Of a stretch of DNA of 43,514 nucleotides, positions 36,874 through 43,514 are shown one piece after another (position 1 is the first letter of the stretch; each line of letters opens with the position of its first letter). The DNA is taken from positions 74,261 through 117,774 of the IMG/VR virus record IMGVR_UViG_3300005660_000003; one strand, given 5' to 3'. Source of the stretch: a virus. Taxonomy: Duplodnaviria > Heunggongvirae > Uroviricota > Caudoviricetes. Under the pieces are notes generated by a model, which made no database searches, had not been told where the DNA came from, and saw nothing but the letters and a program-made list of their open reading frames with translations. Position numbers and translations under genes: made by a program.

Positions 36874-36937
36874 TCCTTGTTGATAAGTATAAGCTATTTG
36901 ATTGTACATCTTACGTAGTATTTTGATAAAAAGACTT

Positions 36938-36980
36938 GGGGCGTGTGGTAAGTGATTATTCCGCCCCTTTTCTTATTTTT
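36938..36980 (+). terminator. terminator after the capsid gene
   Basis: GGGGCG...CGCCCC stem followed by TTTTCTTATTTTT. Confidence 0.6.
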
Positions 36981-37115
36981 GTAAAATTTTTGATACGTTT
37001 TCTAGAAAATTCACCTAAAAAAGAGAAGTACTCTATAGGTGGAGACGATATAGTATAAAATAGAAAACATATAAAAATCGCTTCGCTCTGATAACTGCAT
37101 GGGCCCTTCGGACAA

Positions 37116-38072
37116 ATGTACTTAAAAGAAAGAAGTGAAATGGATCAGAAAACTATGGAATTTGTAGCATCAGCTAAGTCAGTTCATGGTAATAGTTACA
37201 ATTACTCAAAAGTTGTTTACAAAAACAGCAAAACTAAAGTAGAGATTTATTGCCCGAAACATGATTTAGTCTTTTATCAAACTCCGGGTAATCATATTAA
37301 TAAGAAGTGTAGGTGTCCTAAGTGTGGTAGAGAGTCTGGAGCTAAATTACAAACAAAAGATGTAAACTCCTTTATAGAAGACGCTAAAGCACTACACTGC
37401 GATACGTATGATTATTCTAAAAGTGTTTACGTAAATAAGTACACAGATTTAATTATAACATGTCCAACACATGGGGATTTTACCCAAACACCATCTGCAC
37501 ATCTTAGAAATGGATCACCTTGCGGATGTCCTCAATGTGGTTTTGTTAAGATTGGAGATAGAAGTAGATCAACTACTGAAGATTTTATTAAAAAATCTAA
37601 AGAAATGTATGGTAATAAATTTAATTATTCTAAAACTGTCTACACGATAGATAAATCACCAGTAATAATACATTGTAATGATTGTAATGTGGATTTTAAA
37701 GTAATTGCTGCAAATCACCTACGTAGGGCTGGTGGGTGTAAATGTTGTATAAGCATTGGTGAGAAAAATATTAGATTATTTCTCGAAAAGAACAATATAT
37801 CATTTGAACAACAAAAACCTTTTGATGGATGTAAACTCCAAAGATCTTTAAAGTTTGATTTTTACTTGCCGGACTTTAATACCTGTATAGAATTTCAAGG
37901 TAGTCACCATTACTATCCTGAAAATTTTTTTGGTGGAGAAGAAGGTTTTAAAATTACTCAAAACAGAGATAAAATCAAATCAGATTACTGTTCCATTAAT
38001 AATATAAAACTAATTTACCTTACTAAAGATTCCGACATAAATAAAACTTTAGATTTCTTATGTTCAAAATAG
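37116..38072 (+). CDS. homing-endonuclease-like protein: repeated DUF723-like Zn motifs plus C-terminal PD-(D/E)xK/Vsr-like domain
   Basis: Three repeats of F-x(4)-K-x-x-(H/Y)...Y-x-YSK-x-VY...I-x-C-x-x-H...CP-x-C; KFDFYLPDFNTCIEFQGSHHY. Confidence 0.75.
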   Translation: MYLKERSEMDQKTMEFVASAKSVHGNSYNYSKVVYKNSKTKVEIYCPKHDLVFYQTPGNHINKKCRCPKCGRESGAKLQTKDVNSFIEDAKALHCDTYDYSKSVYVNKYTDLIITCPTHGDFTQTPSAHLRNGSPCGCPQCGFVKIGDRSRSTTEDFIKKSKEMYGNKFNYSKTVYTIDKSPVIIHCNDCNVDFKVIAANHLRRAGGCKCCISIGEKNIRLFLEKNNISFEQQKPFDGCKLQRSLKFDFYLPDFNTCIEFQGSHHYYPENFFGGEEGFKITQNRDKIKSDYCSINNIKLIYLTKDSDINKTLDFLCSK

Positions 38073-38096
38073 CCCATATAGCAAAAGGTTTCGTAG

Positions 38097-38615
38097 ATGG
38101 AACATGTTCATAAAGCTGTTGAAACAATAAGTAGATCTAACTTACAATACTGGATTAATGGAGGCGGTAGTTGGAGCGATAGAATAACTTATACTTCCAG
38201 TGATATGTTGCTCATGTTTTGTAGTACGTCTATTTGTTTGATAATGTTATGCATGTATGTATTTTATTCTTTTCAGGTTTACACATTTTCTAAGATTGTA
38301 AAAGAAAAACATTATATAAAGCACCATAAATATTTATGTGCTGCATTTTTAATATGTGGATTTATTCATTTTCTTAATACAGTTGTGGCTTGGTTTGTCC
38401 CACTCTATTGGTTTTCCATATCACTAATGTTAATTAACAGCATTGTGATGTATAAGTTAATATTGTCAAAGTCTCATTTATTATCTATGCAAAATTATAT
38501 AAATGGGGAAATTGCTGTTGAAAAGATCAACCACACTTTAGATTTAATAAGAAGTAAAGATTCAGAAAATATTAATGATATACTGACTAGGATAGAGGGT
38601 ATAATTAAAAGATGA
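38097..38615 (+). CDS. membrane protein resembling the ethylene-receptor (ETR1-type) N-terminal transmembrane domain
   Basis: Three hydrophobic helices; AAFLICGFIHFL...AWFVPLYWFS matches the AFI-x-x-CG-x-x-H...W-x-P-x-YW pattern. Confidence 0.6.
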   Translation: MEHVHKAVETISRSNLQYWINGGGSWSDRITYTSSDMLLMFCSTSICLIMLCMYVFYSFQVYTFSKIVKEKHYIKHHKYLCAAFLICGFIHFLNTVVAWFVPLYWFSISLMLINSIVMYKLILSKSHLLSMQNYINGEIAVEKINHTLDLIRSKDSENINDILTRIEGIIKR

Positions 38616-39295
38616 GTTTAAATATAGACCCATTATTTTTTAAATTACTTTGTGAGGATGCAGACCTTCCTTTCGCCGCAGTAGACGATGAATCTAAGTT
38701 TGTTTGGTTGAATGGGGCTTTTGAGAGGTTAGTTGGATACTCGATATTAGAGCTAATAGGTAAGTCTTGGATGTCAATAACGGTAAACGAGGATGTTGGG
38801 GCGGATTTAGCAAGCGTTAAGTCAGTAATTGACGGGAAAATACAATCTTATAGGATGGAAAAGAATTATATTCATAAAAGGGGACATAGGGTTCCGGTTG
38901 AGTTAACAGTTAGAAGATTTCCAATTGCTATGCACGAACCATTAATACTTTTTAGAGTAGAGGCTTGCCCAGCTAGAGCTACTCGCCCAGAACTTGAAGC
39001 TGTTCATGATGAATTGCTTCAGGAAATAATAAACTTGAAAAAGAGAATAGAAACTAATGAAATTATAGACAAGGATAGAATTAAAATAATTAATGGGGAT
39101 CAGTGGAGTAATGGCGATAAAAGCGGAAGAGATAAAATAACTAATAGTGATACGGCTATTCGATATTTAATTATCGCAGTTGTGATATTTTCAGTAGTAA
39201 TTTCTTGGTTAATTTATGATTTATCTGTTGTAAAATCTGGGGCCACTCCTAAAAAGCCCGATATACAAATTCCAATTAAAGGCTTAATAGAATGA
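38612..39295 (+). CDS. PAS domain - coiled coil - C-terminal transmembrane protein
   Basis: FAAVDDESKFVWLNGAFERLVGYSILELIGKSWMSIT...YRMEKNYIHKRGHRVPVELTV (PAS/PAC); TM YLIIAVVIFSVVISWLIY; no kinase or output domain. Confidence 0.85.
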   Translation: MSLNIDPLFFKLLCEDADLPFAAVDDESKFVWLNGAFERLVGYSILELIGKSWMSITVNEDVGADLASVKSVIDGKIQSYRMEKNYIHKRGHRVPVELTVRRFPIAMHEPLILFRVEACPARATRPELEAVHDELLQEIINLKKRIETNEIIDKDRIKIINGDQWSNGDKSGRDKITNSDTAIRYLIIAVVIFSVVISWLIYDLSVVKSGATPKKPDIQIPIKGLIE

Positions 39296-39702
39296 ATACA
39301 AGTGGATTATATAATCCCAGTGGTCTAGATAGAGTGTCTTCAGTGACTAGTAAAGACCATGCTGTTTATGTTGTAAATAGGTATAGTCGGCCTTCAGCCG
39401 CTTTAACCAATCGCAATATTACTGGGCAGACTCTATATAAGACTATAGCATCCACTGGGGGACTTACTGCTCTGGTGAGTGGCGTGTCAGATGCCCAATT
39501 AGAGGTTTTAAGTTACAATGTCTCTTCTAGCGGGGTTAACGCTGTAAGCTTCCTTTCTGGAACCGGTACTCTTCTTGAGACCACTTACTTAGCTGTAAAT
39601 TCTTCGGCTGATGGCGGGCCATTTAAAGCTGCTATCGCAGATTCACTTTATGTCTCTTCTTCTGGTCCAGTCGCTGGATCTATTGCGTATCGATTGGTTT
39701 AA
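39292..39702 (+). CDS. hypothetical (probably virion-associated) protein
   Basis: ORF track; Ser/Gly/Val-rich; coupled overlap with the upstream gene. Confidence 0.6.
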   Translation: MNTSGLYNPSGLDRVSSVTSKDHAVYVVNRYSRPSAALTNRNITGQTLYKTIASTGGLTALVSGVSDAQLEVLSYNVSSSGVNAVSFLSGTGTLLETTYLAVNSSADGGPFKAAIADSLYVSSSGPVAGSIAYRLV

Positions 39703-40229: not shown

Positions 40230-42452
40230 ATGGACATTTTCGGAATAATCTGGAAGCGAATCAGAAACCTCACAGGTCCAACACTGCTCGGTAGACTCAC
40301 GTCAGGCGTTGGACCGGCGGAGCAGTTGAGCGATTCAGACGTACGGTCGTTTTTGGACGTGTACGATACATTTACGCTCGATACTGCATTAAATGACAAA
40401 GCAGCGACAAGTCATACCCACACGGCTTCGGGGATTACTGATTTTGACACGGCAGTGGCTGCCACACACTACGGAAGGTACAACGTACGTGATTACGGCG
40501 CTGTTGGTGACGGCACAACCGATGACACCATATCGTTGCAGGCGACGATCAATGCCGCAAATGCTGCTGGTGGTGGCGTAGTATTTATTCCGAAAGGAAC
40601 GTACCTAACGACTGGTATAATCGTTAGTAGTAATAACATCAAAATTGAGGGACAGGGTCGCACTAGCATAATCAAGCACTCGACGACGACTATCGCACTC
40701 ATGATTACGACATGCTCTGGAATCACTCTTTCAGATTTTGCAGTTGTCTGCACTGGCGGAAGCGGGACACAATCAGCAATCTATTGCAATGTACTTACTA
40801 ATTCGATCATCAACAGACTGTACATTGATTCGCCGGGCTACGATGGGATACAGCTTTTGTCGAACTGCGTCGGTGTAACAGTGACCGATAACGTAGTGAT
40901 TGGCTGTGGAGATGATGGAATCAATATAGGTGCTCAGCCGAGTAACCCAACCCGCAATTGCACTGTCTCTAATAATACGATTGCGAATTGCGGTAGTGAC
41001 GGCATCCATTTCTCGGAGGATTCCGAGGACAACGCAGCCGTAGGAAATACGATCCGAGATTGCAATGGAGGCATCAGCCTTTATAAATGCCGTCGTGTAT
41101 TGATTGCCGGAAATGCAATCGACAATTGCACCACCTACGGAATTTTAACCCCAGGTAGTGGCAATACTAATTTCACAATCGCCGGGAACATGATAAACGG
41201 AGGAACTCGCGGAATAGATATTCGAAACGCCTCCGTGAATTACGCGATCACCGGTAATATCATAGTTGCACCTGCAAACTATGGGATTGTAATCAGCGAG
41301 TACGCTCAATTATCCGTCAATGGAATTATCGATAATAATATAATCTCCGGAGGCTGTAGCGTAGCAGGGATTCTTGTCAGTGGATCGTCGGACGTAAACG
41401 TAAACAATAATACGATCTCTGGAGTGTCGGCTCTAGGTGTGAGCGTAGCTGCCGGAGGTACGTTGTATTGCCTGCGAATTAAAATTGACGGAAATCGGAT
41501 TGCTTCGGCTGGGCGATGCTTCGAGTTACTTGAGTCATCGGCTACTCAGCATATCAGCGTCACGAACAACGTTTTGAGTACGACATCGGCACGCGGAATT
41601 TTTTACTCTGGCGGAGCGTATTTTAGCATTTGCGGCAATCGCGTCATCGGTGCTAGCGACATTGGAATAGTAATCACAGCTAGTTCATCAAGATCAGGAT
41701 TTGGAGTTGTCACCAATAACTTAATAATTGGCGGATGCACTACAGCAGGGCTGTACTTCAACAATCATGATGATGTTCAGTCCGCCAATAACACGATCAC
41801 AGGGGTCTCAGGTGCGCCGACTCTAATAGTCTCGGGTGCGAGGGTCGGAAATGCGATTGGTACACCAATTAGTGGGGTGCTTACTAATTGCACCGGGCTT
41901 CCAGTTACCGGAATCGTCGCATCAACAAGTGCAGCAATTGGTGTTGGCTCAGTTGAGCTAGGGCACGCTAGTGACACAACTCTAACAAGAGTGTCGGCGG
42001 GCGTGGTAGCTGTTGAGGGTGTGAGGGTAGTTACCGCGTCCACTACAGTTGCTACCGCAACAACCAGTGGGTTAACACTAAAGACTTCCGACGATAATGT
42101 CGCCAATCCATTACTTAAAGTTCTATCAAGTGCGAATGCACTCATCGCAAGTATTGGAGCAACGGGAATAGGGGTACTCGCCAGCTTATCATTTCCAATA
42201 GTTGGTGGCGGTATCACGTATAAGTCCGGCACAGGTCAGCGGGCAGGCAACGCGACCTTAATTGCTGGCGCGGTCACGGTCACAAATACGTCAATTACCG
42301 CCAACAGCGTGATAACCATGACACGCAAAACAGCTGGCGGAACGCTCGGAAATCTAACCTATACGCTGTCCGCCGGAGCATCGTTCACAATAAATTCGGA
42401 CAGTGTCCTGGACACGTCAACTGTGTCATATTTAATAGTTGAGGTAGTCTAA
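40230..42452 (+). CDS. right-handed beta-helix (pectate lyase 3-like) tailspike / virion appendage protein
   Basis: YNVRDYGAVGDGTTDDTISLQATINAA...VFIPKGTY followed by many I-x-x-N-x-I repeats. Confidence 0.85.
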   Translation: MDIFGIIWKRIRNLTGPTLLGRLTSGVGPAEQLSDSDVRSFLDVYDTFTLDTALNDKAATSHTHTASGITDFDTAVAATHYGRYNVRDYGAVGDGTTDDTISLQATINAANAAGGGVVFIPKGTYLTTGIIVSSNNIKIEGQGRTSIIKHSTTTIALMITTCSGITLSDFAVVCTGGSGTQSAIYCNVLTNSIINRLYIDSPGYDGIQLLSNCVGVTVTDNVVIGCGDDGINIGAQPSNPTRNCTVSNNTIANCGSDGIHFSEDSEDNAAVGNTIRDCNGGISLYKCRRVLIAGNAIDNCTTYGILTPGSGNTNFTIAGNMINGGTRGIDIRNASVNYAITGNIIVAPANYGIVISEYAQLSVNGIIDNNIISGGCSVAGILVSGSSDVNVNNNTISGVSALGVSVAAGGTLYCLRIKIDGNRIASAGRCFELLESSATQHISVTNNVLSTTSARGIFYSGGAYFSICGNRVIGASDIGIVITASSSRSGFGVVTNNLIIGGCTTAGLYFNNHDDVQSANNTITGVSGAPTLIVSGARVGNAIGTPISGVLTNCTGLPVTGIVASTSAAIGVGSVELGHASDTTLTRVSAGVVAVEGVRVVTASTTVATATTSGLTLKTSDDNVANPLLKVLSSANALIASIGATGIGVLASLSFPIVGGGITYKSGTGQRAGNATLIAGAVTVTNTSITANSVITMTRKTAGGTLGNLTYTLSAGASFTINSDSVLDTSTVSYLIVEVV

Positions 42453-43514
42453 TGAGTGAAGTCATAAAAGTACGAATGCCAGCCGAAAAAGACGACGCTG
42501 GAACCTACACAGCCTTCCTGCGGTCACGTACTGCCGGGTTGCTGCTGAATTCCGGAGGTGATGCTCTTGTTCGCGTAGAGAATCCGCCGGGCACATACAC
42601 ACAGCTGAGAGAGTTCACGCTGGCAGAGACTCGCAGCGGTGACTATGACGTGATGATCTATTCCGGAACGGATGAAGACGACGATTTCTTGCTGTATAGG
42701 ATAACGCTGGTGGCAGGGCAGTCGGTTGCAGGAGATGTCGCATCACCAGCTACAGCGGTAGCATCAGGAACGGCGCAGAGCGGTAGTAGTATAGGCATCA
42801 CGATAGGAGCCGATAGTTCAGCCGTGACGGGGTTTTACCGTCGAAGTCGAATCACGCTAATTTCTGGGACAGGGGCAGGGCAGTCAAGAATTATAAACGA
42901 CTATGACGGGACGACGAAATTCGTGACAGTGTACCCGATGTGGCTGACATCGCCAGACGACACAACAGGTTACCAGATTGACGGGGACTATGCACCGGTC
43001 GTAAACACGGATGGCGAAATGGCGACGTATCGCATAAGCGAAAACGCAATATCAAGCGTATCGGTATCTGATGGCGCGGTCACAAAGATTCAGGTGGGGC
43101 TTGCAACATCAACAGCACTAGCAGCCGCTCAGGCAGATTTGGATATCATCACAGGTGCGGATGGAGTCAAGTTGCTGTCAGGCACTCAGGCGAGCATTGA
43201 CGAGATTAAGACTAACACAAATGAATTACAAACCAATCAGGGCGATTGGGCAACAGCCACTGGTTTTAGCACATTTGATCCAACAGTAGATACAGTTAAG
43301 GTGGGCGAGGTAAACGCAGCAGCGGTAGAAGATATTTTTTCTACCTATACCCTTGTTGAGTCTTACGCTGCTGTTAATACAATTGGGACCCCAGCACAAC
43401 TACTCTACTTTATACAGCAGGTGTTTTCTGAATTTACTATTAGTGGTACCACAATTTCTATTAAGGCCCTAAGTGGGTCAGATGAGATTGCCACCTTCAC
43501 TATGGATGATGCCA
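42452..43514 (+). CDS. virion structural protein, 3' partial
   Basis: Not in the ORF track. TAATG overlap at 42450-42454; the frame stays open to the window end (MSEVIKVRMP...GTGAGQSRIINDYDGTTKFVTV...). Confidence 0.75.
   Translation, partial: MSEVIKVRMPAEKDDAGTYTAFLRSRTAGLLLNSGGDALVRVENPPGTYTQLREFTLAETRSGDYDVMIYSGTDEDDDFLLYRITLVAGQSVAGDVASPATAVASGTAQSGSSIGITIGADSSAVTGFYRRSRITLISGTGAGQSRIINDYDGTTKFVTVYPMWLTSPDDTTGYQIDGDYAPVVNTDGEMATYRISENAISSVSVSDGAVTKIQVGLATSTALAAAQADLDIITGADGVKLLSGTQASIDEIKTNTNELQTNQGDWATATGFSTFDPTVDTVKVGEVNAAAVEDIFSTYTLVESYAAVNTIGTPAQLLYFIQQVFSEFTISGTTISIKALSGSDEIATFTMDDA

Follow-up and report, generated by a model that had tools for sequence, protein, structure and literature searches.

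A 43,514-nucleotide stretch of viral DNA (the window, which lies at the right-hand end of a linear virus record of 117.8 kb with an estimated completeness of 67%) encodes two membrane proteins that combine a divergent relative of the ethylene-receptor membrane domain with a membrane-anchored PAS domain. The first, P0001 (172 aa; 38097..38615, + strand), carries an ETR1_N-like domain without an output domain, and family-level comparisons give good support for regarding it as a distant but real homologue of the ETR1 membrane domain; the second, P0002 (227 aa; 38612..39295, + strand), consists of a PAS/PAC domain (about residues 7-118), a coiled coil (125-156) and a C-terminal transmembrane (TM) helix. 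Comparison of gene order indicates that the pair is a mobile accessory module and not part of the head module, and it is tentatively proposed that it acts as an accessory membrane module for lysis timing, in which the state of the PAS domain would tune lysis within a heteromeric inner-membrane complex.

Genomic setting and architecture of the pair

The genes ahead of the pair run from a terminase gene with inteins through portal, scaffold-like and cement genes to a 345-aa presumed capsid gene, after which come an HNH-type endonuclease gene (37116..38072, + strand; phrog_559, E 4e-66), P0001, P0002, a 136-aa gene (39292..39702, + strand), a 146-aa presumed adaptor gene and a tail spike gene. 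The HNH and 136-aa genes flank the module, the former lying outside it and the latter overlapping the P0002 stop through an ATGA at 39292-39295; the 'adaptor' label of the 146-aa gene is positional only (phrog_2465, E 0.023). A preliminary description of this DNA had set the pair between the capsid gene and the head-tail adaptor, and it is indeed so placed, but with the HNH gene intervening before it and the 136-aa gene after it. The 243-nt gap between the capsid and HNH genes (36874-37115) can form several stems (about -46 kcal/mol, with no shuffle control). The pair region is identical in six further assemblies of the phage, and a pair-identical strain (L002:12068-16146, compared with window 40230-43514) carries other tail-spike/fibre genes (Laminin G, not beta-helix), a difference that represents a swap of the receptor-binding module. 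The host is probably a planctomycete, because the sole full-length chromosomal P0002 homologue among the GTDB matches lies in a Planctomycetaceae metagenome-assembled genome (MAG).

Both reading frames of the pair, and their translational coupling through an ATGA overlap at 38612-38615, were confirmed. A ribosome-binding-like motif, AAAGGTTT (38084..38091, + strand), lies 5 nt upstream of the P0001 ATG, and AAAGGTTT also precedes four other long ORFs of the genome; no promoter or terminator signal around the pair rose above chance. P0001 comprises a short outer N-terminus, three TM helices (about residues 37-58, 79-97 and 104-122) that are predicted by hydropathy, AlphaFold2 helices and charge distribution, and a cytoplasmic helical or coiled-coil tail; its AlphaFold2 model (pLDDT 91.6) displays three long helices and a C-terminal helical hairpin. 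Positive-inside counts found the loop between helices 1 and 2 and the segment after TM3 to be rich in K/R, and the loop between helices 2 and 3 to be free of charge, so that P0001 is predicted to lie N-out/C-in, as in ETR1. Comparison of the model with the PDB (Foldseek/VIA) returned generic helical bundles only (Z < 9), with no ETR1-type entry among the matches, and its best BFVD row was A0A8E4UZR7 (289 aa, E 0.11), equal in length to the phage protein Molly1_65 described below. Searches with the single P0001 sequence against Pfam, PHROG, the PDB and a word-index protein database gave no match.

The PAS/PAC domain of P0002 (38630..38965, + strand) contains many invariant residues across 19 homologues from unrelated phages. 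It matches PAS_9 (E 1.5e-7; 32.1 bits against a cut-off of 27) and, by Foldseek, the PAS domain of NifL (2gj3; E 3.6e-7, TM-score 0.78 by target), and in the protein model a helix at 125-156 is joined by a flexible linker to the C-terminal TM helix; the order of PAS domain, coiled coil and one C-terminal TM helix first read from the sequence is thereby confirmed. The single TM helix spans about residues 184-203 (in the model, within 174-209) and is followed by a short Pro-rich tail, and the juxtamembrane linker bears a conserved G-D-K-x-G-R-D-K-x-N-S motif. Since P0002 has no N-terminal hydrophobic segment, its PAS domain and coiled coil are predicted to be cytoplasmic. A LOV photoreceptor was considered and rejected: the G-x-N-C-R-F-L-Q motif is absent, and the aligned stretch reads G-K-S-W-M-S, with no Cys in the family. 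A Pfam search found no histidine kinase, GGDEF or receiver domain in either protein, as had been noted at the outset, and the sequenced genome (118 kb, 67% complete) gave no HATPase_c or receiver match. The layout of P0002 recalls that of XhlA, a coiled coil with a C-terminal TM helix, and residues 115-227 have no Pfam match to XhlA or any holin; neither protein matches the holin families of Pfam and PHROG, a weak negative given that holins are very diverse.

Relationship of P0001 to ethylene-receptor domains

The homology of P0001 to ETR1_N (PF25487) is argued from its family, because P0001 alone falls below the cut-off (no hmmscan match; E 0.22 and 8.7 bits in the genome search). An exhaustive search with P0001 gathered 51 other members, nearly all of them stand-alone proteins of 122-273 aa, among which PF25487 is the commonest Pfam family, with weak matches in 7 of the 51 aligned members. 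When 1,234 ORFs (87 multi-TM) were ranked by a P0001-family HMM, 15 of the 16 best non-family matches were ETR1_N proteins, in a set to which ETR1_N loci had been added on purpose and with L104 included after it had proved to be ETR1_N-type, and an hhalign comparison of the family with an ETR1_N profile gave E 2e-5 (probability 54-76%); the bona fide ETR1_N domains used for comparison were taken from bacterial genomes (alignment A4). A bridge is provided by the homologue P0074, which matches PF25487 at 56 bits (above cut-off) and the P0001-family profile at 40 bits, carries a W-x-x-R-W-x-C motif common to the phage P0001 family, and is encoded directly upstream of a P0002 homologue of the same PAS-coiled-coil-TM family. 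At the family level, therefore, the HMM ranking, hhalign and the P0074 bridge bear out the expected profile match to ETR1-type domains; ESM feature matches of P0001 to ETR1_N (0.87-0.88) served as a lead only. Most members of the family have E > 1e-4 to the A4 profile, and the family falls on a separate side of the tree from host ETR1_N; this tree had unsettled bootstraps and long branches and was used only to show that pairing with PAS extends beyond a single clade. Matches of the family profile to TAL effectors were rejected as summed weak repeat matches.

The residue register proposed in the preliminary description held: Y54, C87, H91 and C47 are present, and their spacing (7, 33 and 4) equals that of bacterial ETR1_N (D19, Y26, C59 and H63 in A4) and of published ETR1 (D25/Y32/C65/H69). 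Global hhalign reproduces this register, which was tested against bacterial ETR1_N domains, with Arabidopsis ETR1 entering by published numbering only. The Cys87-x3-His91 motif of TM2 (38355..38369, + strand), equivalent to C65/H69 of ETR1, is mostly conserved, both residues being kept in 40 of 52 P0001 homologues, and within the segment from Cys47 (at the Asp25 position) to Tyr54 (at the Tyr32 position; 38235..38258, + strand) the Tyr is found in 44 of 52. The Asp25 position itself is Asp in 0/52 and Asn in 3/52 members; Cys47 faces the site in 14/52. In ethylene-binding domains this position is Asp in 93.55% and Asn in 3.67%, the D25A change abolishes ethylene binding, and Asp25 pairs with Lys91 (PMC10266040). 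The Lys91 position is Met111 in P0001, in a TM3 that has no Lys, and Lys is never among the common residues there in the family; likewise Ile35, Pro36 and Ile62, also given as essential in ETR1 (PMC6586836), are replaced in P0001 by Tyr57, Ser58 and Phe84, and the same substitutions dominate the family.

Because the Asp25 and Lys91 positions are lost across the family, ETR1-type ethylene binding by P0001 appears unlikely, and that loss, together with the absence of the Cys/His residues from 2 of 8 PAS-paired copies (L009, L011), makes a working Cu/ethylene sensor doubtful. Of the ETR1-like Cys/His domain that had been described, the homology and the Cys/His register thus stand, while its likeness to ETR1 as a Cu/ethylene sensor is in doubt; a remodelled Cys/His metal or redox site is possible. 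P0001 shares with Arabidopsis ETR1, Synechocystis SynEtr1 and Azospirillum AzoEtr1 (PF25487) three TM helices in an N-out/C-in arrangement, and the equivalents of Tyr32, Cys65 and His69 at identical spacing, and the Cys of the bacterial ETR1_N N-terminal H-G-H-C motif is kept in 33 of 52 family members (it is Tyr in P0001). It differs from them in lacking (i) equivalents of Asp25, Lys91, Ile35, Pro36 and Ile62, and (ii) GAF domains and any covalently attached output domain (kinase, GGDEF or receiver), having instead a separate partner gene; it is also phage-encoded, scores below the Pfam cut-off, and belongs to a family with motifs of its own (Y-W-x-x-G-x-G-x-W and an invariant D36).

Linkage, mobility and neighbouring genes

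Surveys begun from each of the two genes demonstrated that both are linked elsewhere, as had been anticipated, being adjacent in seven other loci (L009, L010, L011, L014, L015, L049 and L213). Among P0002 homologues (42-52% identity), an ETR-like gene lies directly upstream in four of nine lineages (L009, L010, L011, L049), and the fetched flanks of the other five (L007, L008/L018, L012, L019/L152, L020) contain none. Starting from ETR-like genes, a PAS-coiled-coil-TM gene adjoins in L014, L015 and L213, in the last with the order reversed, at 30% identity and with the same juxtamembrane motif; in L016 and L151 an overlapping or abutting TM-coiled-coil gene occupies its place. A single-pass coiled-coil partner is accordingly present at 9 of 9 other ETR-like loci, whereas the PAS protein also occurs on its own. 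The C-terminal half of P0002 has no detectable homology to the other TM-coiled-coil partners, with which it has only the layout in common.

The genes surrounding the pair differ completely between loci, its sites including the capsid-adaptor interval, a position before a tail tube gene, one beside glycosyltransferases, and one before an RHS gene in the Planctomycetaceae MAG. The two nearest relatives by capsid (81% and 68% identity) have the order capsid, adaptor and 136-aa gene, with no HNH gene and no pair there, and the pair follows the capsid gene in 0 of 21 other capsid loci examined. Since the 136-aa homologue follows the adaptor in these relatives, the local order has been rearranged in the window; relative to L186 and L187, window 37116-39702 has gained the HNH gene and the pair, and the 136-aa gene stands before the adaptor and not after it. 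The P0001 and P0002 family profiles detect neither gene in a phage that is 99% complete and whose capsid is related (38%); the module is therefore dispensable. The flanks contain no attC-like core sites, so that the pair does not resemble the integron cassettes of this genome. INPHARED contained no close homologue of either protein, and most IMG/VR pattern scans gave nothing.

Several related arrangements were observed in the course of these surveys. P0039 (273 aa, on a 1.7-kb contig) is a fusion of an ETR-like domain to a PAS domain of a different type and a short coiled coil, with no kinase. The Planctomycetaceae MAG (L049:3766-9218) carries a chromosomal pair of a canonical-scoring ETR1_N gene (Asn at the Asp25 position) and a PAS-coiled-coil-TM gene, which is preceded by an IS-interrupted Ser/Thr kinase gene and overlaps the start of an RHS-repeat gene of >1,400 aa; this pair may serve to release a polymorphic toxin in the manner of a lysis module. 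On a viral contig (L210:3239-5691), an EAL-like gene is followed by an apparently frameshifted ETR1_N-PAS-GAF-GGDEF gene.

The role in lysis timing raised in the preliminary description gains support from independent synteny, which includes a cultured phage. In Maribacter phage Molly_1 (MT732451; L212:2989-4901), three genes follow in order between the tail genes and terminase: Molly1_64 (148 aa, a TM helix and coiled coil), which overlaps the next gene; Molly1_65 (289 aa), an ETR1_N protein (PF25487 at 61 bits, above cut-off) extended at its C-terminus by 160 aa of unknown nature; and, 3 nt after it, an Amidase_3 endolysin. The first two are unannotated, and no holin is annotated within this stretch. 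As a point against the lysis reading, however, Molly_1 is a phage of Bacteroidota, and its ETR1_N gene falls in a subfamily other than that of P0001. Comparable arrangements comprise a tail tip gene, ETR1_N and TM-coiled-coil gene in a Planctomycetota prophage (L183); a PF00112 papain peptidase, ETR1_N and a coiled coil with a C-terminal TM helix, the P0002 layout minus PAS (L211); and a further ETR1_N gene with a TM-coiled-coil partner (L214). In L208 and L209, ETR1_N stands alone with no evident partner.

A cassette that encodes a secreted protein, a peptidase of papain-like or subtilisin type and several small membrane proteins directly abuts the locus in L007, L010, L014, L015 and L016, the last including PF23987 Phage_holin_10; trypsin-like genes occur near the L151 and L213 loci, and holin-shaped genes near L019/L152. 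We read these peptidase cassettes as putative lysis cassettes. No such cassette adjoins in about half of the lineages (that of this phage, L008/L018, L009, L011, L012, L020 and L049), and the 5 of 13 in which one abuts give a binomial p of about 0.006 if the background is taken as 10% and of 0.1 if it is taken as 20%, so that enrichment of pair or partner loci beside peptidase cassettes is suggestive only. In the present genome, where no Amidase_3 was found (67% complete), some 65 kb separate the pair from the peptidase/holin-like cassette (G000 45-50 kb), so that the pair could be at most an accessory regulator there. That cassette (L017:1584-6719) combines an 82-aa holin-shaped gene with genes for secreted proteins, for a peptidase split by an intein and for a thioredoxin-like protein. 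Cassettes like it were also seen in L007, L014, L015, L016, L019 and L152, and may serve planctomycete phages as their lysis cassette. In L019 (5748-6287), a lone PAS-coiled-coil-TM gene is followed by a gene for a 179-aa membrane protein with His-box motifs, which by eye resembles a TMEM189/CarF-type desaturase.

Proposed role, competing explanations and significance

The tentative proposal of a lysis-timing module envisages that P0001 and P0002, in phages that probably infect Planctomycetota, would act like a holin/antiholin or a two-membrane-protein lysis pair. Both proteins would be inserted in the inner membrane so that their coiled coils face the cytoplasm, and would associate as a heteromeric complex; the conserved PAS domain would read an intracellular ligand or a redox or energy cue, the cue would shift the association of P0001 with P0002, and the shift would speed or delay membrane permeabilisation, whether by the pair itself or by a separate holin cassette. 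The PAS domain is the likelier live sensor of the two. The ETR1-like bundle has probably become a scaffold, rather than an ethylene receptor, in which any surviving Cys/His metal or redox site would be a remodelled one. A predicted complex of the two proteins scored 0.00 and carries no weight either way.

Elements of such a scheme have precedents. In T4, holin T and antiholin RI control lysis as a heterodimer anchored in the membrane (PMC11413866), and the P0001/P0002 pair resembles them in consisting of two membrane-anchored phage proteins that are proposed to form a heterodimer linking a signal to lysis timing; no similarity of sequence or fold to them was found, and the sensing domains of the T4 proteins are periplasmic, whereas the PAS domain of P0002 is predicted to be cytoplasmic. 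LysF1a and LysF1b of F1 mycobacteriophages, a multi-TM and a one-TM protein, are needed together (PMC13056207), and they, like XhlA/XhlB of PBSX (PMC5589764), match P0001/P0002 as multi-pass and single-pass proteins encoded together; the present pair adds sensor domains to this plan and has no adjacent endolysin in its genome. VqmA of vibriophage VP882 (PMC8284805) is, like P0002, a phage-encoded PAS sensor, and bears on a lysis decision, but it is a soluble transcription factor, whereas P0002 is membrane-anchored and lacks a DNA-binding domain.

The principal competing explanation, that the pair is a membrane module of the moron type which excludes superinfecting phages, counters defence or remodels the host envelope and has nothing to do with lysis, is rather unlikely. 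The mobility of the pair, its insertion at many different sites, its dispensability and its own strong ribosome-binding motif would all fit such a module; the pair nonetheless lies in a late or structural gene run at nearly every locus, lacks promoter or terminator signals above chance, and has relatives (ETR1_N and partner genes) that occupy a lysis position. The same location in a structural operon, with translational coupling to the conserved 136-aa gene, could suggest a virion or morphogenesis component, such as a membrane anchor for head assembly, but this is highly improbable: the pair is absent from the site in all 21 other capsid loci, including those of the 81% and 68% relatives, in which nothing stands between capsid and adaptor, and its position varies freely between phages. 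Its inclusion in the virion module, as first described, is therefore incidental.

Other explanations assign the pair to signalling. A kinase-free receptor, in which an ETR1-type Cys/His copper site (possibly Cys47-Cys87-His91) would operate with the PAS domain to gate lysis directly on a gas, copper or host redox state, is unlikely. It is distinctly unlikely, too, that the pair forms the input half of a phage signalling system that governs a lifestyle decision, with its kinase or receiver in the host or the unsequenced part of the genome: both domains are of sensor type, the PAS domain shows strong conservation, only an estimated 67% of the genome is represented, and phage PAS receptors exist (VqmA of VP882; PMC8284805), but the 118 kb of sequence contain no HATPase_c or receiver, and at none of the family loci was a kinase or receiver gene called next to the pair genes. 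Still less probable is the dominant-negative jammer that the preliminary description entertained, its target being a host two-component system of ETR1 type or with a PAS domain. ETR1 works as a dimer (PMC10266040), the P0039 fusion resembles the input half of such kinases, and ETR1_N sensors with long frames occur in 45 of 401 Planctomycetota genomes; the idea is nevertheless poorly supported. That frequency places a target in only about 11% of candidate hosts, and the P0001 family has diverged widely from the ETR1_N domains of hosts (for most members, E > 1e-4 against the A4 profile); a HisKA/DHp segment is missing from both proteins, and the TM helix of P0002 is C-terminal, unlike that of sensor kinases. 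A PAS-coiled-coil-TM gene was itself found in 1 of the 401 genomes searched.

A literature search of incomplete coverage found no paper describing phage ethylene-receptor-like genes of this kind; what is new is the kinase-free combination of an ETR-like domain with a PAS domain, the individual domains and two-protein lysis regulators being already known. Few signal-responsive controls of lysis are known, among them T4 lysis inhibition and VP882 quorum sensing, and a widespread module with sensor folds coupled directly to membrane proteins without a kinase would constitute a new route to phage lysis timing. Its probable hosts, the Planctomycetota, are a group in which phage lysis genes are all but uncharacterised; the cultured Maribacter phage Molly_1 makes the link to lysis testable now. 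The ethylene-receptor TM fold evolves here free of the Asp25-Lys91 bridge while mostly retaining Cys/His, and the P0001 family therefore offers natural variants for probing the ligand of that site and the role of the domain before, or apart from, ethylene sensing. If such a lysis-gating receptor exists, phages would have turned the ethylene-receptor fold into a ligand-gated holin system.
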